DNA from: a bacterium
GTDB lineage: Bacteria; Fibrobacterota; Fibrobacteria; UBA11236
Length of the DNA: 64,000 bases
Direction of reading: 5' to 3'
Assembly (NCBI GenBank): GCA_900299345.1
Contig: OMJM01000031.1
Coordinates: 14,788 to 78,787, forward strand
Shown: piece after piece, positions 6,087 through 63,722 of the stretch
Layout: each line of letters starts with the position of its first letter
How positions within the stretch are numbered: position 1 is the stretch's first letter
The notes under the pieces: generated by a model
The model's input: only the letters and a program-made list of their open reading frames with translations
Databases searched by the model: none
Told to the model about the DNA's origin: nothing
Made by a program: the position numbers and the translations under genes

Positions 6087-8390
6087 ATGCCGAGAAATTA
6101 TCACATGTTCAAAGTTTTAAGCCTTTCGCTGGTCGGACTTTTCGGGGCCGTCATGGCGACACCTCCTGTTCTTAAAACTGGAGCCTGCCCGACCTTCACG
6201 CGCAGTGCTCCAGCTTCTGGCGACAACTGGGGCCAGTTTCCTATCAAGCCGACAACTGCGTTCGTCACAGCCAACTGCTCTGGTGCAGCCTGTACGCAGC
6301 AAGATCCCCTCCCGACCAATCAATCGATCAACTGCATTCAGGTTCCCTCCGGTTTGAGAGCAGAACTGGTTGCTTCCGAGTTGACCCCGGGTCCCGCGCC
6401 CAGCTTGGGATACCTGATGTATATCTCTTTTGACGAGCGTGGCCGCGTCTGGGCCGCGGAGCCCCGCGATTACCCGGCCATTGCCAACGATCCGAATCCG
6501 ACCAACCGCATCACCGGCGGCAAGGGCCGCATCCTGATTCTTGAGGACACCGATGGCGACGGCTCTCTGGACAATTACAAGGTGTTCTATGACGGCCTCG
6601 TCATGCCCACCAGCCTTGAAGTCGTGAACGGCGGCGTTATTGCCACCGTCGAACCACTCGTGGTTTTCCTCCCAAAGAGCACGACCAATCCGGACACTGC
6701 AGGTGCGCCGATCACCTTGTTCTCCGGTATGGGCAGCACGGGCAATACTTGGGACACCCATGGTGGAACCAACAGCATTACTTCCGGACTCGACAACTGG
6801 TACTACGGCCACCTCGGGTATAACGGCGGGTGCAGCGTCAACGGTGTGACCTGCGCCACGGGCGGTGTCTGGCGCTTCCGACACACGGCCATCGGCAGCC
6901 TGACAACAACGTTCCAGGCCTTTTCCACCAGCGGCCCCGCAAATGCCCACGGCGTGGGTCAGATGGAAGATGGACAAATCTTCCAGTCCGGCGCCACCGG
7001 AACTCCGCATAACAACCACGCCATCCGCCGTGGCGTTGCAGCGGTGAACATTCAAGTCAACGGCACCTACTATCCCATCACCGGCGACCGGTATCTCTGG
7101 GAAGGCTCGACGGGTATGACGAATGGTCAGTTCACTTCGAATACCACTGCTTCTTCAGGCCACGATTTCTACACCGCACGCCTGCTGCCTCAGAAGTACT
7201 GGAACACCCGTTCCTTCGTATGTGAAGGTGCCAGCAAGTTGTGCAACCAGGACAGCATGGTGATCAATGGAAGCACTTGGACCGCCGCGCGCATGCCGGG
7301 CCCGGTTACCTCCAACATTTTTGCTTCCTCCGACGCATGGGTCGCTCCGATCAAAGTGCGCACCGGACCTGATGGCGGCCTCTGGGTTGTGGACTGGCAC
7401 AACTACCTGTTCCTTCACAACCCTGCCACGCCTGCGACCAATGCGGCGTGGAACAACGCGCTGCGTACCAAGACGCGCACCCGCCTGTATCGCATCGTTC
7501 CGGATGACGGCCATACCGATCCCGTCCTGAACCTGTCCAACGCCACCACGGCGCAGTTGGTGGCCACGTTGTATCACTCCAACTTCGTGTGGCGTATGCA
7601 GGCCCAACGTCTGTTGATCGGAAAGGGCTACACCGCCGAACTGGGCGATTCTTTGCAAAGCATCCTGACCAACCACAAGACCGTGGATGCGGTCGGCATT
7701 GATGGTGCCGTCATTCACGCAATTTGGACGTTGGAAGGCCTGAACCGTTTTGTTGTGGATTCCACCCGTTGGGCTCCCATTCTGAAAAGCCTTCTCCTCC
7801 ACCCTGCATGGGGTGTTCGTGAGAACGTGTTGAAGGCGATGCCTAGAACTGCAACATCGGCACAGGCCATCAGCGATCAGTGCGCAGCAGATGATCCTCA
7901 TGCCCATGTCCGTTTGCAGGCCTATGTCGCCTTGGCTGAAAGCCCTGCCGCCACATCCGGAGCCGTGCAAGGCCATTATCGTGCCACTGATACCTACTCC
8001 TCTTCAGCTTTCGATGCGGCAGGAGCATCCAAACTGGCTGCTGCCACGCCGGCCAATACGCGGCCTACAAGCTGCCCCGACATCCAATCGACTGTCGCGC
8101 TCAGTCACGGTTCGGATCTAAAGAACACACAAATGGCCAACCCAATGCGCTTTACCATGACGCGTAACGGCTTTGAATTGGATCATCCTTATGGTAAGCT
8201 GTCTTCTGGCGATTTGGTGGTGTATGACATCACCGGTAAGGCGGCTTTCCGCTCCAGCTACAACTCCGCCACAGAGGCGTGGTCGACGACCACTGCGAAG
8301 GGTCTGAACATGTCCGTTTACTTCTATTCGTTCCATGGAACGAATGGGGACAAGTTCGAAGGACGCCTGCTCACAAATCAAGAATTCTGA
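6087..8390 (+). CDS. secreted beta-propeller ('membrane-bound dehydrogenase domain'-like) protein with C-terminal HEAT-like repeats and T9SS-type C-terminal domain; paralog A
   Basis: GGGGGAG RBS before ATG 6087; signal peptide MFKVLSLSLVGLFGAVMA; motif GRILILEDTDGDGSLDNYKVFYDGLVMPTSL matches the DTDGDG block of TIGR02604-type propellers; HEAT-like helices (..AIWTLEGL..LLLHPAWGVRENVLKAM..HAHVRLQAYVALAE); C-terminal ..LVVYDITGKAAFRS..MSVYFYSF.. tail. Confidence 0.65.
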   Translation: MPRNYHMFKVLSLSLVGLFGAVMATPPVLKTGACPTFTRSAPASGDNWGQFPIKPTTAFVTANCSGAACTQQDPLPTNQSINCIQVPSGLRAELVASELTPGPAPSLGYLMYISFDERGRVWAAEPRDYPAIANDPNPTNRITGGKGRILILEDTDGDGSLDNYKVFYDGLVMPTSLEVVNGGVIATVEPLVVFLPKSTTNPDTAGAPITLFSGMGSTGNTWDTHGGTNSITSGLDNWYYGHLGYNGGCSVNGVTCATGGVWRFRHTAIGSLTTTFQAFSTSGPANAHGVGQMEDGQIFQSGATGTPHNNHAIRRGVAAVNIQVNGTYYPITGDRYLWEGSTGMTNGQFTSNTTASSGHDFYTARLLPQKYWNTRSFVCEGASKLCNQDSMVINGSTWTAARMPGPVTSNIFASSDAWVAPIKVRTGPDGGLWVVDWHNYLFLHNPATPATNAAWNNALRTKTRTRLYRIVPDDGHTDPVLNLSNATTAQLVATLYHSNFVWRMQAQRLLIGKGYTAELGDSLQSILTNHKTVDAVGIDGAVIHAIWTLEGLNRFVVDSTRWAPILKSLLLHPAWGVRENVLKAMPRTATSAQAISDQCAADDPHAHVRLQAYVALAESPAATSGAVQGHYRATDTYSSSAFDAAGASKLAAATPANTRPTSCPDIQSTVALSHGSDLKNTQMANPMRFTMTRNGFELDHPYGKLSSGDLVVYDITGKAAFRSSYNSATEAWSTTTAKGLNMSVYFYSFHGTNGDKFEGRLLTNQEF

Positions 8391-46742: not shown

Positions 46743-49244
46743 TTAGAGTGACAGGATGATTTTGGACGCTGCAAGCACTTCGGGCTTCCCTGTGCCATCC
46801 GAAATCACCTGCACGAAGTAAACTCCCGGAACCGGGAAGCCACCCTCGGAATGACCATCCCACGACACCTGTGTCGCCCCACTTTTAACATGACGACTCC
46901 AGACCGAACGACCATGCACATTGAGCACGGAAACAAGAACCGGACCGATTCCATTTGGCAGACGGATGGTGATCGAAGAAAGCCCATTGATATCTATCCC
47001 ATGTAAATTGCGGATCTGCGCTTCTATTGAAGATGAGGATATCACCCAAAGCGTCAAAATCGCGGTCGTGGAACCCACTGCATTGGTCGCCGTGATAGTG
47101 AAATCCGAGTAAGACGGGGTGGATGCCGTGGGCGTTCCAGAAATAATTCCCGTCAAGGTATCGAATGCAAGACCCGCAGGCAATACGGGGGTGATACTCC
47201 ATCGCGTCACTGTTCCTGTCACCGTCGGAGTATTCGCGGCAATGGTCTGACCTTGCGTGTACGTGGCTGGATTGGCGTTATAAAACAGTCCTGATGGAGC
47301 GCCGTACACCGTAATGCTGATCGTGACGGTTGCGGAACCCGCCGCATTGGTGGCAGTGACTGTATAGGTTTTCGTGGCCACAGTAGATGTGGGTGTTCCA
47401 GAAATCACACCTGTAGTGGCATTGAGACTCAAGCCCGCCGGTAGTGCTGGGTTCACCGCATAGGTCGCCACAGTACCCGTCACAGTCGGGTTGTTGGCGG
47501 TGATCGCGATGCCGCGCGGGTAGTTCGCCGTGGGAGTGGAATAGGAAAGTCCCGTGGGAGGTGCCAACACCGTGATGTTTACAGTTGCTGTCGTGGAACC
47601 TGCAGAATTACCGGCAGTCACGATATAATTGGTCGCTGGTGAGACTGCCGTGGGCGTTCCCGAGATAACACCCGTCGAGGTGCTCATCGTCAATCCGGCG
47701 GGAAGCGCGGGGGAAATCGAATACGACGTCACCGTGCCCGTCACCGTAGGACTATTCGCAGTGATGGCCGTATTGAGACCATAAATCGCGGGAGATGACG
47801 AGTACGACAATCCCGTGGGTGCGACCAGGCTTCCGTTCACCGCTATGGATAGTTGCGCAGTGGCGGAACCTCCAGCGTTGGTGGCAGTAATCGTATACGT
47901 CGTGGCGGATGCCGTGGCTGTCGGTGTTCCGGAAATCACACCCGTCTGCGTGTCGAAGGACAATCCGGCGGAAAGCGCCGGAGAAATCGAATAGGATGCC
48001 ACGCTGCCGCTCACCCGAGGGGTGCTGGCTGGAATGGCATAACCCACCGTATACACAGCGGGATTGGGGGCATAAGAGAGATTGTAAGGTGCGATGGCTG
48101 CCGTGGCGCCCAAAAGCACAAAAGAGGAATCCGTGCGCTGAGTCTGATAGCTCAATTTGATCCAGTCCGCAGACTGCGCCCTGCCCGCAAGCTCCACTTC
48201 ATCCATTGTACCGTTGAAATACTGATCATAGGGGGCCGACGAATCCATCTTTCCAATCGTGAATGCATCGGGCCAGACTTGATCCAAAGATGTCATGCCG
48301 GTCGCCGAATTGGTGGCCCTTTGTGTGCCGTTGATGTATATGATTCTGGAATTCGCCGTGAGCGTGGCGGCCACATGGTACCACGTATTGTTCGTCGCGG
48401 TGACTGTGGAACTGAGCGTTGCATCGGCACCACCATCCAGGGAATAAAACAACGAAATAAGACCCGCATTGTTGGTCACCAAGGCATATTGACGATTCGA
48501 TCCGTTACTGTAGGTATACCGGCCGGCCATGCACTGGACGGGATTGGTATTGCTGGTATTGGTTCCGGTGCGACGCATCCAGAAGGAAAGCGTCACGCCA
48601 TCGGTGCTGTTCATGTCGAGTCCACCATTGACATTTGTGGCAGTGAGGTATTTTCCATTCAGACCCGTGGCACCCTGGCCCGAACCATTGGCAAGGTTGA
48701 CCGCCTTGCCAATCATTCCATCCACGGAAGCAGGGCTGTTCTGCCATTTCGCTTCGAGATTACTGGGAGTTGCATCCGCGGATGGCGTTGAACTTTCCCC
48801 CAAATGCCACACTGCACGGAATGAATTGTCCCTGTTGAAGACCGCCGTTCCGCTCGAACTGTCCGGGGCACCGGTCTTGGACCAATAAATCTGGAGAGTG
48901 GTCGTATCGTTCCCTTTGACGTTCGGAACACGCACCCAAAATTCCGCCAACTTATTGGTTACATCCCAACGCTCACGTTGATAGACCAGATGCGTGGTGC
49001 CTCGGGCAAAACGAATGTCGAATCCATTCGCAAGCGCCCCTGTAAAAATGTCATTGGCGTTTGTGGCGTTGAGACGCACAAGCACGGGAAAGTCCGTTTG
49101 GGCGTTGGTAACACGAGCTCCACCAGCCTGATTACGGGTATCGATGACGATGGGTTTGTAGTACCCCCATGTCGTATAATCTTCCGCAGACACCAACGTG
49201 GATAAGCCAACTAGAAAACCGAAAAAACAAGCTTTGATGGACAT
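46743..49244 (-). CDS. secreted DUF2341 + LamG + six He_PIG repeats + T9SS-type C-terminal domain protein
   Basis: DYTTWGYYKPIVIDT..FPVLVRL..IRFARGTTHLVYQRERWD..AEFWVRV (DUF2341); six repeats ..SYSISPAL.AGL.....TGVISGTPTA..; C-terminus ..GGFPVPGVYFVQVISDGTGKPEVLAASKIILSL. Confidence 0.65.
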   Translation of the reverse strand: MSIKACFFGFLVGLSTLVSAEDYTTWGYYKPIVIDTRNQAGGARVTNAQTDFPVLVRLNATNANDIFTGALANGFDIRFARGTTHLVYQRERWDVTNKLAEFWVRVPNVKGNDTTTLQIYWSKTGAPDSSSGTAVFNRDNSFRAVWHLGESSTPSADATPSNLEAKWQNSPASVDGMIGKAVNLANGSGQGATGLNGKYLTATNVNGGLDMNSTDGVTLSFWMRRTGTNTSNTNPVQCMAGRYTYSNGSNRQYALVTNNAGLISLFYSLDGGADATLSSTVTATNNTWYHVAATLTANSRIIYINGTQRATNSATGMTSLDQVWPDAFTIGKMDSSAPYDQYFNGTMDEVELAGRAQSADWIKLSYQTQRTDSSFVLLGATAAIAPYNLSYAPNPAVYTVGYAIPASTPRVSGSVASYSISPALSAGLSFDTQTGVISGTPTATASATTYTITATNAGGSATAQLSIAVNGSLVAPTGLSYSSSPAIYGLNTAITANSPTVTGTVTSYSISPALPAGLTMSTSTGVISGTPTAVSPATNYIVTAGNSAGSTTATVNITVLAPPTGLSYSTPTANYPRGIAITANNPTVTGTVATYAVNPALPAGLSLNATTGVISGTPTSTVATKTYTVTATNAAGSATVTISITVYGAPSGLFYNANPATYTQGQTIAANTPTVTGTVTRWSITPVLPAGLAFDTLTGIISGTPTASTPSYSDFTITATNAVGSTTAILTLWVISSSSIEAQIRNLHGIDINGLSSITIRLPNGIGPVLVSVLNVHGRSVWSRHVKSGATQVSWDGHSEGGFPVPGVYFVQVISDGTGKPEVLAASKIILSL

Positions 49245-49364: not shown

Positions 49365-50477
49365 TTATTCGGCAACGCGGATATCGCTCCAATCCTCATC
49401 CTGAGAAGCGGCTCCAGCGTGGGCTTGAGCCTTAACTTCATCGCGGCTGGTTTTCAAAGTCTGACGGACTTTGGCGTCGATTTCAGCCGCCAACTCCTTA
49501 TTCTCCTTGAGATAGTCGCGAGCGCGTTCACGCCCTTGGCCGATGCGTTCCTTCCCGTATGAAAACCATGTGCCTGATTTCTGGACGATTTCCAAATCCG
49601 TGGCCAGATCGAGCAGGCTGCCCTCCCGCGAGATTCCCGTTCCGTAGAGAATATCGAACTCGCATTGCTTGAACGGGGCCGCCAGCTTGTTCTTGACGAC
49701 TTTGACGCGCGTGCGGCTACCCACCGCTTCTTCACCCTCCTTGATGGATGCGACCTTGCGAATGTCGAGACGCACGGATGCATAGAACTTGAGCGCGTTA
49801 CCACCGGTGGTGGTTTCGGGGTTGCCGAACATCACGCCGATTTTCATGCGCAACTGGTTGATGAAAATAAGACAGCACTGGGAACGACTGACAATGCCCG
49901 TGAGCTTGCGCAAGGCTTGCGACATGAGACGAGCTTGAAGCCCCATGTGGGAATCCCCCATCTCGCCGTTAATTTCGGCCTGCGGAACTAGGGCCGCCAC
50001 CGAATCCACCACAATAATGTCCACAGCACCGCTGCGCACGAGAGTTTCGCAAATGTCGAGTGCCTGTTCGCCGGTGTCCGGCTGCGACACAAGCAGATTG
50101 TCGATGTCCACTCCAAGACGACGGGCATACAGCGCGTCAAAGGCGTGTTCGGCATCGATGAATGCGGCGATGCCCCCGGCCTTCTGAGCTTCGGCTACGG
50201 AATGCAGCGCCAGGGTCGTCTTTCCCGAGGATTCCGGTCCGTAGATTTCCACGATGCGCCCCTTGGGTAATCCACCCACGCCAAGCGCCATGTCGAGCTG
50301 AATACAACCTGTGCTGACGATGGGAACATCCAGGGTTTCTTGCGAACCCAAGGTCATGATCGAACCCTTTCCATGGGCCTTCTCGATCTGGGATACGGCG
50401 GTTTCCACCGCGCGCCGTTTGCTCGCGGTCTCTTCGGACTTTTGCTCGGACATCGGGGACGTTTTCTTCGCGCTCAT
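49365..50477 (-). CDS. recA: recombinase RecA
   Basis: GPESSGKTT Walker A, full-length RecA conservation (..[38 protein letters not shown]..); AAGGAG RBS. Confidence 0.97.
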
Positions 50478-50516
50478 GGCGGCACTCCTTTGAAATGGTG
50501 GAAATAATCTAATGAC

Positions 50517-50536
50517 TACTGCTCACTTGTGCAATG
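50517..50536. promoter_or_regulatory. candidate SOS (LexA-type) operator upstream of recA
   Basis: TACTGCTCACTTGTGCAATG: half-site TACTG conserved, second half weaker; 40-60 nt upstream of recA ATG; speculative. Confidence 0.25.
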
Positions 50537-50561
50537 CTTTTTTGAGTAGAAATAAATATTT

Positions 50562-51811
50562 TCATAACTCCTTTAAAATCAATAATCTAAGCCGATTTAA
50601 AGCCGAGTAGGCACTCTGCCATCGATTGGTTTTCCGATCACCGCGGAACACAAATTTTTGAACCTCAACACTTTTTTGCGATGCGACGGCGATATAAACC
50701 AGCCCTACGGGTTTTTCTTCCGAACCCCCATCAGGGCCCGCGATTCCGGTGATGGCAACAGCGTAATCCGTGTTGGAATTTTTCAAGCAGCCGCGTACCA
50801 TCGCCAATGCCACCGGCTCGGATACGGCTCCGTGTTGCTCCAATAATTCTTGCGGCACATTCAAAAGTCCATTTTTGGCCTCATAGGAATACGTGAGAAA
50901 ACCCTGACGGAACACGCTCGAGCTTCCCGGAATTTCCGTGAGCAAATATCCCAAAGCGCCGGATGTACACGACTCCGCCACGGACACAGTGCGATTGGAG
51001 TTCTTCAATAACCTGAACACCGTCTCCGTCAACGACGCTCCATTTCGCTCCACAATGCATTCGGCCGGAAACCGCTCCAGCATCTCTTCCCATGCTTGAT
51101 CGAGTCGGGTTTGCATGGCTTCTGCTTCGGCGCTATCTACGAAAGCCTCCAACGAAATCGTCACGCCGGGTTCGGACGGAAGCGAAGAGAAGCGAAACGG
51201 TTCCGGCGTCACGAACCCTTTGAGACATTCCCGTTGCCGGCTTTCGCTCAGACCGAATGTGACGACACGCTTGTGCAACAACACGGCATCACGCCGCAAC
51301 AGCAAGGGCCGGCAATGCTCATCGAACATGGTGCGAAACTCGTAAGGCACACCCGGGAAAGCAAAAATATTGATGCCGTTTTTTTCAACGCGGAAGCCGC
51401 AGGCTGTGCCCGCTGTGTTACGCAAAGGAATGGAACCACCCGGGATATGAAGTTGTTGGCGTTGCCCTTCGTTGATTTTATCCGCAGAAACACCCAGGCG
51501 CTCTGCGAGCCAAGCCTCGGCCTCCCGACTGAATTCCAAGGGCTGCCCAAGGAACTCCGCCACAGCTTCACGCGTGATGTCGTCCCGCGTGGGACCCAAT
51601 CCTCCCGTGAGGATCAGCATGCCACAGCGCGGAAGCACACCGGATTCGGACACGACGCTTCGCAATGTATGGCTGATGGCATCCGCATGATCCCCAATGG
51701 TCAGGTTGAAAGCCAGCTCGTGTCCCAACTCCGCAATCCATCCGGCCAGATCACGAGCATTGGTATTCAGAATCTTTCCAAGGAGTAATTCGTCGCCGAT
51801 ATTGATGAGAC
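50562..51811 (-). CDS. cinA: competence/damage-inducible protein CinA (MoCF-binding N-domain + CinA C-domain)
   Basis: Start at MRIGLINIGDELLLGKILNTNA (51811); C-terminal CinA-type deamidase-like domain; immediately upstream of recA as in many bacteria. Confidence 0.85.
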
Positions 51812-51868
51812 CGATGCGCATGCCATCACGAAATATAGGGAGATCCCCGGAAGTATCTTTCGATTCGG

Positions 51869-52828
51869 ATGCTTGCGCGCTTTTTCCTCCCGGTTCTGCT
51901 CCTGATTTCCATCGGCCTCTCCGCCGATCCTCGCCCGCCATCCGGCATCCCCGAAATCGACAGCTTGCCGCTGAACGACTGGAAAGCACAGAGCCATCCC
52001 CTGTCCACCTTCAAAGCGGTGTCCCTGTCCGCCGTGTTTCCCGGCGGCGGACAGTTCTACGGCGGCCATCCCGTGCGCGGAAGCTTTCTGGTCGGCCTCG
52101 AATCGGTGCTGTTCGGTTTATCCCTGTATACCTACCTCGTGGACCTCCCCCGTCTTGATCGCGTAACCAGCGATTATCTGGATTCCGCCAATTCGGCCTT
52201 TGATCGCATGATGCGCCTCACTCCGGATCAACGTGCCAGCAGTGTGGACAAATCCACCTTCGAAATTTCGATCCAACGTGCAAGGAACAACGCTTCATTG
52301 CGTTTGCAAAAAGCGGATCTCGCCAACTCGCAACTGGCATGGGCCATCGGATTGCATTTCTACGGCATGGCCGATGCGCTGGAAATCGCCCGGAAGAGCC
52401 AGAACCCCGATCCAAAATCCCGTTCCATCGAGAAGGCCATGTGGTGTGGTCTCGCCTTTCCTGGCGGTGCGCAACTCTACAACGAGCGCTACGGAAAATT
52501 CGGGATGTTGTGGATGGCGCTTGGCGCCAGCGCGGTGTCGGCTTGGTCGCGGCAAAATGTGGTCGAGTCGCTCAACCTGTCCATCGCCTCGGCCCGGGCT
52601 GAGGAAGGTACTGGAGGGATTGCGACGGACGTCGAGCAACTCGATGTGGACCGTACTCTCTACCGGAAGCGGAGGAACCAGTATTACTGGGGTATGGCCC
52701 TGCTTTACGTTTATGGGGTTCTGGACGGCATGGTGGATGCAGCTCTGTCGGACTTTGACAAACCCAACCGCTACGCCCTCGAGCCGGGTTCTACCCCCTT
52801 GTCGGCCGTAGCAGTAGTTCATTTCTGA
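51869..52828 (+). CDS. hypothetical membrane protein with two DUF5683-like motifs
   Basis: Signal/TM; repeated SAVFPGGGQFYGGHP and GLAFPGGAQLYNERYGK resembling the DUF5683 (..PGlGQiYN..) pattern. Confidence 0.45.
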   Translation: MLARFFLPVLLLISIGLSADPRPPSGIPEIDSLPLNDWKAQSHPLSTFKAVSLSAVFPGGGQFYGGHPVRGSFLVGLESVLFGLSLYTYLVDLPRLDRVTSDYLDSANSAFDRMMRLTPDQRASSVDKSTFEISIQRARNNASLRLQKADLANSQLAWAIGLHFYGMADALEIARKSQNPDPKSRSIEKAMWCGLAFPGGAQLYNERYGKFGMLWMALGASAVSAWSRQNVVESLNLSIASARAEEGTGGIATDVEQLDVDRTLYRKRRNQYYWGMALLYVYGVLDGMVDAALSDFDKPNRYALEPGSTPLSAVAVVHF

Positions 52829-52863
52829 AATTTCCACATTTTGGTTGAATTATGGACTTTATG

Positions 52864-52879
52864 CTGCACATAAAAGCAG
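52864..52879. promoter_or_regulatory. candidate SOS box (CTG-N10-CAG) immediately upstream of umuD
   Basis: TGCTGCACATAAAAGCAGTA matches about 14 of 20 positions of the E. coli-type LexA consensus TACTGTATATATATACAGTA, with CTG/CAG arms intact; 13 nt upstream of umuD ATG. Confidence 0.3.
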
Positions 52880-52891
52880 TATATTGGAAGT

Positions 52892-53269
52892 ATGTCCACA
52901 GCTGCCATCCGGGGCTTTGCCGCCATCGCAAACGACCACCTCGAGGCGCCGCTGGATATTTATCGCCTCTTGGTGAAGCATCCTGCAGCAACCTTCATCA
53001 TGCGAGCCAGCGGGCAGTCCATGAGCCCGGCGATTTGCAGCGGCGACCTGCTGTTGGTGGACAAATCGCTCACCGCGCGCGATGGCGACATCATCATCGC
53101 CTCGGTCAACGGAGAACTGATGGTCAAGCGTCTGTTCAAGCGCGAGGGCCTGCTCACCTTACTGCCGGAAAACCGTGAGTACTCCCCCATCGACGTGACT
53201 GCGGGTTTCGACTTCCAGATCTGGGGCGTGGTCACCTACATCATCCGCGACACGTGTACGCCATCGTAG
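52892..53269 (+). CDS. umuD: translesion-synthesis protein UmuD (S24 LexA-like peptidase)
   Basis: S24 catalytic Ser in ASGQSMSP and Lys in MVKRL; 125 aa; overlaps umuC start by 16 nt. Confidence 0.85.
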   Translation: MSTAAIRGFAAIANDHLEAPLDIYRLLVKHPAATFIMRASGQSMSPAICSGDLLLVDKSLTARDGDIIIASVNGELMVKRLFKREGLLTLLPENREYSPIDVTAGFDFQIWGVVTYIIRDTCTPS

Positions 53270-54507
53270 ACTGCAATAACTTCTTCGTCAGTTGCGAGCG
53301 TGTCTTCAATCCACGGCTGGAAGGCCGGCCCGTGGTGGTGCTTTCCAACAATGATGGCTGCGCGGTCTCGCGTTCCGATGAAGCCAAGGCACTGGGTGTT
53401 CCCATGGGCGCTCCGCGCTTCAAGTTCCGCGACCTCGAGAAACGTCACGGCATCGTGTGCCTGTCGTCCAATTTCGAATTGTACGCCGACATGTCGCGGC
53501 GGGTCATGTCCCTGTTCGATCAATGGTCCCCGGACGTGGAACCATACAGCATCGACGAGGCCTTTCTCTGGCTTCAAAATCCCTCGCGTGATTATCTCGA
53601 AAAAATCGCCCGGGAGATCCAGACAACGGTCAAACAGTGGACGGGAATTCCCGTGTCCGTGGGTGTCAGTACCACGAAGACGCTTTCCAAGGCTGCCAAT
53701 GACTTTGCCAAGCGCAACAAACTGGGAATCAAGATTCTGCCAATTGCAGAAGCGCCGGAAATGCTCTCCAGGCTGCACGCCAAGGATATCTGGGGCATCG
53801 GCCGCAAATTGACGGAATGGCTGGGTGAACGAGACATTCAGACGGCCCTGGAACTGAGCAACACCCCGGATCGCTGGATACGAAAACATCTCGGAGTCAC
53901 CGTGGAACGCACCGTGATGGAACTCCGGGGAATCCCCTGCATCCCCATGAACTGCCATCCCGGCGCACAGCGGAACATGGTGCATGCGCGCTCCTTCAGC
54001 CACCGGGTGGACTCCAAAGATGAACTCCGCACGGCCGTGGCCTATTACGCGGAACGCGTCGCGGCCAAACTGCGCCGGGAAAAATTGGCCGCGCAAGCCG
54101 CATGCGTTTTCCTGTCCACCGACTACCACAAGCCGCAGGACTCGCAGTATCACGGCTCGGAAACCTTGGCGTTTCAGGTGCCGACGAATTTCACCCCCGA
54201 GGTCGTGGAATACGCCCTGAAGGCGTTCGATCAAACCTTCCGTTCCGGCTTCCGCTATAAGAAAGCTGGAGTCATGATGCTGGAACTGGTCCCTCAGGGC
54301 GAGGTGCAGGGAGAACTTTTCGATAAGGTGGATCGTTTCAAAGCCAAAAAATTGATGTCCGCGTTGGATATTATGCAAGCGCGGCACGGCGAACGGGCTT
54401 TGCATTTCGCCATGGGAGGCGCGCAGGATGGCTGGCAATCGAAACGGGAATTCCGGACCCCGCGCTATACGACAAAATGGAACGAAATTCCGGTGGCACG
54501 CGCGTGA
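53254..54507 (+). CDS. umuC: Y-family DNA polymerase V catalytic subunit UmuC
   Basis: MYAIVDCNNFFVSCERVFNPRLEGRPVVVLSNNDGCAV N-terminus diagnostic of UmuC/DinB family; 417 aa. Confidence 0.9.
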   Translation: MYAIVDCNNFFVSCERVFNPRLEGRPVVVLSNNDGCAVSRSDEAKALGVPMGAPRFKFRDLEKRHGIVCLSSNFELYADMSRRVMSLFDQWSPDVEPYSIDEAFLWLQNPSRDYLEKIAREIQTTVKQWTGIPVSVGVSTTKTLSKAANDFAKRNKLGIKILPIAEAPEMLSRLHAKDIWGIGRKLTEWLGERDIQTALELSNTPDRWIRKHLGVTVERTVMELRGIPCIPMNCHPGAQRNMVHARSFSHRVDSKDELRTAVAYYAERVAAKLRREKLAAQAACVFLSTDYHKPQDSQYHGSETLAFQVPTNFTPEVVEYALKAFDQTFRSGFRYKKAGVMMLELVPQGEVQGELFDKVDRFKAKKLMSALDIMQARHGERALHFAMGGAQDGWQSKREFRTPRYTTKWNEIPVARA

Positions 54508-54555: not shown

Positions 54556-54631
<76 letters not shown>

Positions 54632-54655
54632 TTTTGACCTTGATTTCCGAAACGA

Positions 54656-54690
54656 AAAAGCCGTTCCCAAAGGAACGGCTTTTTCGTTTT
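54656..54690. terminator. bidirectional rho-independent terminator between tRNA-Lys and convergent DUF1080 gene
   Basis: 8-bp stem GCCGTTCC/GGAACGGC with 4-nt loop flanked by A-run upstream and TTTTTCGTTTT downstream. Confidence 0.65.
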
Positions 54691-54703
54691 CTGTTTCGTG
54701 AGC

Positions 54704-61772: not shown

Positions 61773-63722
61773 CTATCTCGTGGAGATCAAACGGGAATAC
61801 GTTTGGTTCCCCGCCTGAACCCTCACGACACTCATGCCAGATGAAAGTTCTGAAGGCTGGAACAGGATCTGCTCGCTTCCACGGCCCTGACGCGTGGCCC
61901 GCACTTCACCCTTGAGGTTGGTGACCCAGACCTTATAGGGCGCGTCCTGCGAAAGGATTAGATTCAAACGCACCATTCCTCCGGGAATCGCACTAAGCGT
62001 AAACGGATCCTTGCCCGCTGAAGTGCGATAATTTTCAATCGCAACTGCAGCCGAAGCCGGACCAAAGGCATTGAGTGTGTAAAAGGCTTCCGTGCCGTAA
62101 AGCGTTTCATTCGCATCGGTCTTCATGGCGTCAGTCCAACGGAAATAGTATTGCCAATGCGCCGTAAGCTGGCCGGCCGGGAAGGTCACAACCACCTTCT
62201 TGCGATCGGCCTGAACCGTCGCCGAAGTGACTTGAACAGTAGCCACGCTGCCTGTCGTGGCAGTGGACGTCGTGCTGGCCGCACCGATACGGCAGCAGCC
62301 ATAGTTTTCGGAAAGCCGATCCCACCATTTCTGGACCGCGATATTGGCAGTCACGTCGTTGCCAAGGCTGGTGGCCAAAGGCTTGGTGAATTCGAACTCG
62401 AAAGTGTTGGCGCCCGTGCTGCGCACGGCCAGCATTTCAAAAGGCGCTGCCGCGCCACTGACGCTGATGCGATCCAAGCCCACGCTGGTGTTTCGGGTCC
62501 AGCCGGCGGAGGTGGCTCCGTTCGCACCGCAGTAAAAATTGCCGTCGGGCCCGGTGACCAAGGCGAAACACGCATTCTTGCTGAATCCGCTCGGAGTCGA
62601 GGTTCCCCCGAACACGGTGTTCCGGGCGAACTGAAACACGGCACCCTGATATTCGCCGTCTGCGGTTTGCTCAACATAGGCGCGAACCATCACACCGGAT
62701 CCGGATTCTCCGTTGTCGGATTCCGCGATGAGAAGTTGACCGGCATAAACGCCGCTTTTGATTTCAACGAATTGGGCCGTCGATCGCTGCCACCCAATCG
62801 GACCCGCTCCGGAGGCGCTTGTATTCTTGAACGGGATGTTCAGCACGAAAGGCGTTGCGAGCGAAAACATGTCTTCCGGACTGGAATAGGGAAATTTGAC
62901 ATTGGTGGGATTCATTGCGCGCGATGTCGGCTGGAACATTGAAGGAGGATTCACGGGACGACCGTACCAACGCCCGGCCTTGGGGTTATACACCACACTC
63001 GAAGGCCGGTATCCCCCCTGGATTTCCGCCACCCAAGGCTGGCCGTAGACCATGGAGAAACCTCCGGGAACCCGCAGACCGCCGCTGAACACCTCGAGGG
63101 CGCCGTCGCTTCTGCGAACGCGCAGCACACCATTGTGGCGCCCGGCCGGAACAGGATCGATGGAAGTTCCCGAGCTGACGGTGGGATCGCCGAAGGCGGC
63201 ATAGAACCAGGTACCGTCGTACGGAAGCCCCATGGCATATTCTTTTGAGTTCACCGACTTGGTCCAGTCATAGGCGATGGCCCGGTACTCGTCGGCCGTG
63301 CCATCGTGATCGTTGTCGAGCAACAAGGTCACCTGATCCTTTTCCAGCACATAGATGGAATCGTTGACCACTTTCACACCCAGAGCTTCGACAAGCCCTG
63401 TGGCGAACTTGGTCACCGTGGCGGACTTGGGGTTGCTTCCCACGATTTCCTTGCTGACGATGAAAACTTCGTAAGGGTCCCGCCAGCTCGTCACCACGAG
63501 GCGGCCGTCGGACATGAAATCCATGCCGCCGATGGGGAAAGCCAGAGCCCCTCCCGTGGCTGGCCACGGGGTTCCAGCCGCTGCAGTGGTTCCGCTGCTG
63601 GGACGGATGTCTGTGACGGTATAGGAGGGATGGGCGCCTGCCACGGGCTGGCGGTCTCCGGCCCGTTGGGCGGAGGCAATGGAAATAAGAACGCAGGGGA
63701 TGAGGTATTTGATGAGTTTCAT
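61773..63722 (-). CDS. secreted beta-propeller protein ('membrane-bound dehydrogenase domain'-like) with T9SS-type C-terminal domain
   Basis: Signal peptide MKLIKYLIPCVLISIASAQ; MDFMSDGRLVVTSW and VTLLLDNDHDGTADEY blocks resembling the DxDGDG propeller family; C-terminal tail ..YKVWVTNLKGEVRATRQG....GMSVVRVQAGNQTYSRLIST. Confidence 0.5.
   Translation of the reverse strand: MKLIKYLIPCVLISIASAQRAGDRQPVAGAHPSYTVTDIRPSSGTTAAAGTPWPATGGALAFPIGGMDFMSDGRLVVTSWRDPYEVFIVSKEIVGSNPKSATVTKFATGLVEALGVKVVNDSIYVLEKDQVTLLLDNDHDGTADEYRAIAYDWTKSVNSKEYAMGLPYDGTWFYAAFGDPTVSSGTSIDPVPAGRHNGVLRVRRSDGALEVFSGGLRVPGGFSMVYGQPWVAEIQGGYRPSSVVYNPKAGRWYGRPVNPPSMFQPTSRAMNPTNVKFPYSSPEDMFSLATPFVLNIPFKNTSASGAGPIGWQRSTAQFVEIKSGVYAGQLLIAESDNGESGSGVMVRAYVEQTADGEYQGAVFQFARNTVFGGTSTPSGFSKNACFALVTGPDGNFYCGANGATSAGWTRNTSVGLDRISVSGAAAPFEMLAVRSTGANTFEFEFTKPLATSLGNDVTANIAVQKWWDRLSENYGCCRIGAASTTSTATTGSVATVQVTSATVQADRKKVVVTFPAGQLTAHWQYYFRWTDAMKTDANETLYGTEAFYTLNAFGPASAAVAIENYRTSAGKDPFTLSAIPGGMVRLNLILSQDAPYKVWVTNLKGEVRATRQGRGSEQILFQPSELSSGMSVVRVQAGNQTYSRLISTR

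Follow-up and report, generated by a model that had tools for sequence, protein, structure and literature searches.

The 64-kb stretch of DNA analysed here, hereafter the window (contig OMJM01000031.1, from the metagenome-assembled genome of an uncultured bacterium of the phylum Fibrobacterota), harbors recA and an overlapping umuD-umuC pair, and upstream of recA as well as of umuD lies a 20-bp palindrome, the putative operator that is the subject of this work. The genes of the window were taken from its listing of open reading frames (ORFs) and from Pfam and NCBIfam profile searches. On the minus strand, recA (49365-50477; Pfam RecA, 2.3e-140, and RecA_C) has upstream of it a full-length cinA (50562-51821; MoCF_biosynth and CinA/PncC domains in Pfam and NCBIfam). 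Divergently, on the plus strand, a membrane protein gene of the DUF5683 family (51869-52828; Pfam PF18935, E = 1e-18), to be taken as context only, lies ahead of a umuD-like gene for an S24 peptidase of 125 amino acids (52892-53269) and of umuC (53254-54507), which encodes a Y-family polymerase, the catalytic subunit of DNA polymerase V (Pol V); the reading frames of umuD and umuC overlap by 16 nt. The umuD product passes the cut-off of the NCBIfam model NF007621 (121.7 bits for a cut-off of 110). For the umuC product the best NCBIfam model is UmuC, with a score (398 bits) under its cut-off of 431; the Y-family domains IMS and IMS_C and the UmuC-type C-terminal domain (DUF4113) are all present, and an identical NCBI protein is annotated as UmuC of a Fibrobacteres bacterium. 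A UmuD identical to that of the window is found on a contig of the assembly GCA_003455335.1, and the RecA of the window is 74-76% identical to those of the nearest RecA loci, from metagenome-assembled genomes (MAGs) of Fibrobacter and of Fibrobacteria. This arrangement had been read in the same way in a preliminary description of the locus: the coordinates agree for recA and cinA as neighbours on the minus strand, and the profiles confirm all three genes of the divergent group, DUF5683, umuD and umuC.

Both sites fit the palindrome TACTGCNC-N4-GTGCAGTA. The putative LexA box upstream of recA, TACTGCTCACTTGTGCAATG, occupies positions 50517-50536 with its core TGCTCACTTGTGCA at 50520-50533; the one upstream of umuD, TGCTGCACATAAAAGCAGTA, occupies positions 52862-52881, with its core TGCTTTTATGTGCA, read on the minus strand, at 52865-52878. 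Neither box is assigned to a strand. The two strings pointed out in the preliminary description are thus present, at corrected distances from the genes: 39 nt, not about 45, separate the first from the ATG of recA, and 10 nt, not 13, the second from the ATG of umuD. Mazón et al., in 2004, reportedly established TGCNC-N4-GTGCA as the LexA box of Fibrobacter succinogenes by mobility shift and footprinting. An exact match to this motif occurs only once in the 64 kb of the window, and it is TGCTCACTTGTGCA, inside the recA site; the core of the umuD site, TGCTTTTATGTGCA, departs from it by one mismatch. We also considered the palindromes as RNA hairpins, which was rejected: they fold no better than shuffled sequences, and the Rfam matches in the window are to tRNA only.

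The palindrome is conserved. Alignment with three related genomes (L001, L002 and L003) places a recA box at the same promoter position, reading TACTGCTCATTTGTGCAAGT in L001, TAGTGTTCGTTTGTGCAAGT in L002 and TAGTGTTCACTTGTGCAAGT in L003. The umuD box is likewise present in all five relatives compared, whose UmuC proteins are 55-68% identical and whose flanking genes are unrelated: TACTGCTCATAAATGCAGTA in L167, TACTGCTCAAAAAAGCAGTA in L168, AACTGCCCTGATGTGCAGTA in L169, ATCTGCTCAAGCGTGCACTA in L171 and GCCTGCCCTAAAGTGCAGTA in L173. Together with the two sites of the window, these three recA sites and five umuD sites form a set of ten sites from nine genomes, whose consensus is the palindrome given above with the core TGCNC-N4-GTGCA. 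Six positions (T4, G5, C8, G15, C16 and A17) are invariant in the ten sites, and the exact core is found at recA in the window and in L001, and at umuD in L169, L171 and L173. Besides, the distance between the end of the box and the ATG of umuD is fixed at 10-11 nt in all six umuD loci. We note that L001 (CAZRWX010000002.1) is titled “uncultured Bifidobacteriales”, yet its RecA is the closest to that of the window (76%), its DUF5683-cinA-recA synteny matches and its box is of the Fibrobacter type, so that this taxonomic label is probably wrong.

The motif is also specific. A weight matrix built solely from the sites of the other genomes ranks the two sites of the window first and second in the 64 kb, with 20.3 and 19.8 bits, the next match reaching 11.6 bits; one out of 500 shuffles attained 19.8 bits. 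When matrices were built leaving out one genome at a time, the recA or umuD site came out on top in every one of the nine genomes. The longer string ACTGC-N8-GCAGT is even more restricted, as it occurs in about 2 Mb of scanned loci solely at three of the umuD sites. As a positive control, the same scan recovers boxes of the E. coli type (TACTGTATA...ACAGTA) in about ten umuC loci of other phyla: L150 5452, L126 889, L136 5465, L130 9, L122 3919, L163 5545, L162 937, L139 5841 and L166 4195 and 5882. These loci came from a metagenome scan with UmuC alignment (among the matches listed, UmuC is 39-48% identical), and, where set against the umuC coordinates of that scan, most of their boxes precede umuC by a few hundred bases, at the expected place of umuD, the one at L166 4195 being about 1.8 kb upstream. 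The matrix scans detect no third site in the window or its flanks. A match in L146 (4681-4700) was rejected because it lies inside a coding region; GC-rich matches were also seen at L164 7104, at L078 4050 and at 62248 of the window.

The preliminary description compared both sites to LexA boxes of the E. coli type, partially, and retained CTG-N10-CAG as the candidate operator pattern. The consensus of the E. coli SOS box is TACTG(TA)5CAGTA (PMC9578287), and the sites could indeed be gammaproteobacterial boxes, with their specificity residing in the CTG-N10-CAG arms. Part of the resemblance is real: length (20 bp), AT-rich spacer and location ahead of recA and umuDC are the same, the umuD sites of the window, L167, L168, L169 and L173 display CTG-N10-CAG, most of them with the outer arms TACTG...CAGTA of the E. 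coli consensus, and our matrix also picks up true boxes of the E. coli type from other phyla. However, the window contains CTG-N10-CAG 13 times for 12.7 expected, i.e. at chance frequency with no enrichment, and the recA site of the window, which reads CTG-N10-CAA, falls outside this pattern, as all four recA sites end with CAA; the umuD site of L171, which ends GCACTA, has CAC there. In that form the pattern is not confirmed. Moreover the arms are CTGC and GCAG instead of the CTGT and ACAG of the E. coli box (CTGT-N8-ACAG): ACTGC-N8-GCAGT is carried by the umuD sites of L167, L168 and L169, and CTGC-N8-GCAGTA by that of L173. The fourth arm position is C/G and not T/A, CTGC...GCAG being found in eight of the ten sites, and positions C8, G15, C16 and A17 are invariant, whereas the E. 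coli consensus reads T and A at positions 8 and 15. With these differences, and in another phylum, it is very unlikely that the sites are E. coli-type boxes. The box is a Fibrobacter-type one whose dyad is extended, neither of the E. coli type nor of a new one.

The position of the boxes is informative with respect to transcription. Upstream of recA, a sigma-70-like promoter can be proposed on the minus strand (50506-50534), with TTGCAC as the -35 element (50534-50529), a spacer of 17 nt and TAGATT as the -10 element (50511-50506), followed in 3' by an AGGAG ribosome-binding site and then by the ATG. The recA box spans this putative -35 and 12 nt of the spacer, and the recA sites end with CAA because this half of the palindrome doubles as the hexamer TTGCAC. 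The layout TTGCAC-17-TAGATT or TATATT is kept in L002 and L003, and L001 has a spacer of 16 nt ahead of TAGATT. Upstream of umuD, the likely -10 element TATATT (52880-52885, plus strand) starts with the TA on which the box ends, and the ATG comes 6 nt after it; all six umuD loci conserve TAnnTT and have their ATG 6-7 nt past it. Such a short distance past the -10 hexamer implies a leaderless transcript, and no Shine-Dalgarno sequence is found at a usable distance from umuD in the window, L167, L168, L169, L171 and L173; the umuD mRNA is probably leaderless. A TTTG upstream of umuD was examined as a -33 element of the Bacteroidetes type and dropped, as the 30-36 nt that separate it from the -10 are too long.

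A LexA box would thus lie over the -35 and spacer of the recA promoter, and at umuD it would fill the spacer and overlap the first bases of the -10, so that occupation of either box by a LexA dimer would block RNA polymerase. By analogy with the E. coli and F. succinogenes systems, DNA damage would give rise to RecA filaments triggering the self-cleavage of LexA, which would relieve this occlusion and allow the transcription of recA and of the overlapping umuD and umuC. One may object that the palindromes just reflect a promoter architecture shared by both genes (-35 TTGCAC, -10 TAnnTT and AT-rich spacer), or chance, and that no operator exists at all. The boxes do partly coincide with promoter hexamers, and the spacer is AT-rich. 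But the same dyad covers different elements, the -35 at recA and the -10 at umuD, the invariant positions fall outside the hexamers, the pattern is missing from the remaining intergenic regions (no third match above 12 bits in the window), and only the one shuffle in 500 mentioned above reached the observed score. This makes the objection extremely unlikely to hold.

We consider it quite probable that the two palindromes are binding sites of the LexA repressor of this Fibrobacterota bacterium, and that they belong to the Fibrobacter type of SOS box; there is good support for their acting as SOS operators of recA and umuD. Several observations weigh against this interpretation. Some concern the motif itself: in L004, a MAG of Fibrobacteria, no recognisable box stands upstream of recA (7800-7975), the top matrix score anywhere in the locus being 9.9 bits, and the control of recA by LexA may have been lost there, or the motif may have diverged. 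In L002 and L003, which belong to the genus Fibrobacter, the recA sites carry the half-site GAACAC and not GAGCAG, and they score 13.6 and 14.5 bits, above the mean but below the highest of the shuffle maxima for these loci. As regards the promoters, a scan with strict consensus called neither the recA nor the umuD hexamers, which were inferred. Finally the regulator itself does not appear: no lexA is found in the window by tblastn with the LexA of E. coli and B. subtilis, as the preliminary description had noticed, the sole match being the S24 domain of UmuD; the flanking DNA reached via the edge proteins of the window, about 8 kb on the left side and 5-6 kb on the right, has no lexA called in it either; and the same tblastn finds none in L001-L004, nor is there one in the other related loci.

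This last point could suggest that the palindrome is bound by another repressor, responding to damage or unrelated to it, and that LexA is absent from the lineage or irrelevant there. Control of damage-response genes by proteins other than LexA exists in other phyla, and about 78 kb of this genome are indeed free of lexA. But a genome is far larger than 78 kb, and absence from such a small part of it says little. Furthermore the motif coincides with the box reportedly footprinted for the LexA of F. succinogenes, and in nine genomes it precedes exactly the two most canonical LexA targets. It is therefore very unlikely that a repressor other than LexA is the one recognising the palindrome.

LexA being retained as the probable regulator, the sites compare well with the reported box of F. 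succinogenes: the core and the phylum are the same, and in both cases a dyad-symmetric operator is placed in an SOS promoter. The difference is that, in the lineage studied here, the dyad extends outward to TAC...GTA and makes a 20-bp palindrome; the Fibrobacter MAGs L002 and L003 themselves differ from the F. succinogenes box, by the GAACAC of one recA half-site. An experimental characterisation of the LexA of F. succinogenes by Mazón et al. (2004; Microbiology 150:3783, PMID 15528664) is cited in PMC3091678. The preliminary description had supposed that the sites, if real, would define the SOS operator of this lineage. Eight other genomes have the box conserved ahead of recA or umuD, over promoter elements, and in this sense the supposition holds; but the sites are no new operator of the lineage, because their core is the box reported for F. 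succinogenes LexA. We are thus dealing with a known control system, of which this is a solid but ordinary example, the box type having reportedly been determined in the same phylum already, and the current understanding of the SOS response is unchanged. The analysis extends to uncultured environmental Fibrobacterota an experimentally defined LexA box that came from one cultured rumen species, and it provides a weight matrix usable for predicting SOS regulons in a poorly studied phylum. Besides, the Fibrobacter box is said to be a step towards the gammaproteobacterial one, an idea with which a longer conserved dyad bearing E. coli-like outer arms is consistent.

If the operators are shared, the gene neighbourhood is not. 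The preliminary description regarded recA, cinA, DUF5683 and umuDC as an SOS-type island, a view that does not survive the comparison: in the five relatives umuDC stands in unrelated contexts, with neither recA nor DUF5683 nearby. Its neighbour is an MFS transporter in L167, an SGL-family gene in L168 and a TPP-enzyme gene in L169 and L173, in the latter with three unannotated genes between the TPP-enzyme gene and umuD. In L171 (1-15897) the setting resembles a mobile element, with RadC, a TrwB-type coupling protein, a BanI-type restriction enzyme and methylase and an SRAP gene. L171 encodes a UmuD of full length that has an Ala-Gly site, but the box and its spacing to the ATG are the same; the operator may travel with the umuDC cassette. 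In the window the two transcription units lying side by side are thus a species-specific juxtaposition and not a conserved island.

DUF5683 had also been proposed as co-regulated in the SOS response, on account of its location between SOS genes. We find no box upstream of it with the matrix scans, neither in the window (51822-51868) nor at its homologues in L001 and L003, and the umuD box is downstream of its stop codon; its co-regulation is therefore unsupported, the more so as umuDC is not linked to it in the five relatives. DUF5683 is divergent from cinA/recA in three Fibrobacterota genomes, i.e. the window, L001 (4529-5419) and L003 (6228-7058), with one extra gene between the DUF5683 homologue and cinA/recA in L001. 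The conserved neighbour of DUF5683 is thus recA, not umuDC.

The umuDC pair of the window resembles that of E. coli in that an S24 accessory gene overlaps the gene of a Y-family polymerase, with a LexA box, putative here, in the promoter. Over residues 25-136, the UmuD of the window shares 42% identity with that of E. coli, and Ser43 and Lys79 are retained, aligned with Ser60 and Lys97 of E. coli. It differs by its beginning: only 7 residues precede the Gly aligned with Gly25 of E. coli, and Arg7-Gly8 stands in place of the cleavage site Cys24-Gly25, so that the alignment to E. coli UmuD reveals no N-terminal arm cleavable at Ala/Cys-Gly in the window protein. With such an N-terminus, the RecA-stimulated removal of a 24-residue arm is impossible as it takes place in E. 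coli. The protein cannot be longer than 125 amino acids, as an in-frame TAA (52871-52873), located inside the box, bounds the umuD ORF. To this is added, also at variance with E. coli umuDC, the start codon 6 nt after the -10 on a probably leaderless mRNA.

The short N-terminus is common to L167, L168, L169 and L173, where Arg or Lys replaces the Cys/Ala before the Gly; the corresponding genes lie at 52892-53269 in the window, 9636-10016 in L167, 7561-7938 in L168, 2986-3363 in L169 and 7624-8013 in L173. Some of these relatives are deprived of catalytic residues, the Ser in L168, both the Ser and the Lys in L169 and L173. By comparison, nearly all of about 60 umuD genes adjoining umuC in other phyla encode Ala/Cys-Gly at position 17 or later and the Ser/Lys pair. 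Among the matches listed from the protein database, the short UmuD is found solely in the closest relatives, and almost all proteins below about 65% identity have at least 135 amino acids.

This suggests that the UmuD of this clade is made directly in an active form similar to UmuD', leaving LexA as the main gate of Pol V. It is tempting to go further and to propose, tentatively since we hold this as possible rather than probable, that a small clade of Fibrobacterota has simplified its control of Pol V. Its UmuD'-like UmuD would have only 7 residues as its N-terminus and no Ala/Cys-Gly site, the Ser/Lys dyad decaying in some members, and its translation would start on a leaderless mRNA with the LexA box lying over the promoter; the RecA-dependent proteolytic checkpoint of E. 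coli would be absent, leaving LexA control of transcription as the sole gate on mutagenic synthesis by Pol V. In the same proposal, the 20-bp box, whose TACTGC...GCAGTA arms frame the Fibrobacter core, would represent a surviving intermediate stage between the LexA boxes of Fibrobacter and those of Gammaproteobacteria. The truncated UmuD is in any case a small and testable hint that the two-step control of Pol V is not universal.

In Firmicutes, e.g. Streptococcus pneumoniae and Bacillus subtilis, cinA directly precedes a recA of the same orientation. Gene order and strand are the same in the window, and the cinA-recA pairing is also found in L001, L002 and L003. Here the situation differs from that of Firmicutes by the 84-bp gap between the two genes, which holds the putative promoter and operator proper to recA, and by the lack of a box upstream of cinA in the matrix scans of the window. 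CinA is called with 419 amino acids in five independent assemblies and with 459 in a sixth (L085). Upstream of recA in L002 (7421-7894) and L003 (7470-7901), tblastn matches the window CinA by its C-terminal PncC-type domain only.

On the other side of the locus, a tRNA-Lys(CTT) gene (54556-54631, plus strand; ARAGORN and Rfam) lies directly in 3' of umuC, starting 49 nt past it, and is followed at 54640-54700 by a long GC-rich hairpin with a run of T. This tRNA-Lys could be an integration site for umuDC. The window displays no compositional anomaly that would indicate a recently inserted cassette; the adjoining tRNA-Lys and the variable context of umuDC in the relatives keep the reading of a recent insertion alive. 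Lastly, just downstream of recA (46743-49244), the window encodes a secreted protein of 833 amino acids with DUF2341, Laminin_G_3 and He_PIG repeats, adjoined by a paralogue of 415 amino acids; L168 encodes another DUF2341 protein, at about 5 kb of distance from the umuDC genes there.

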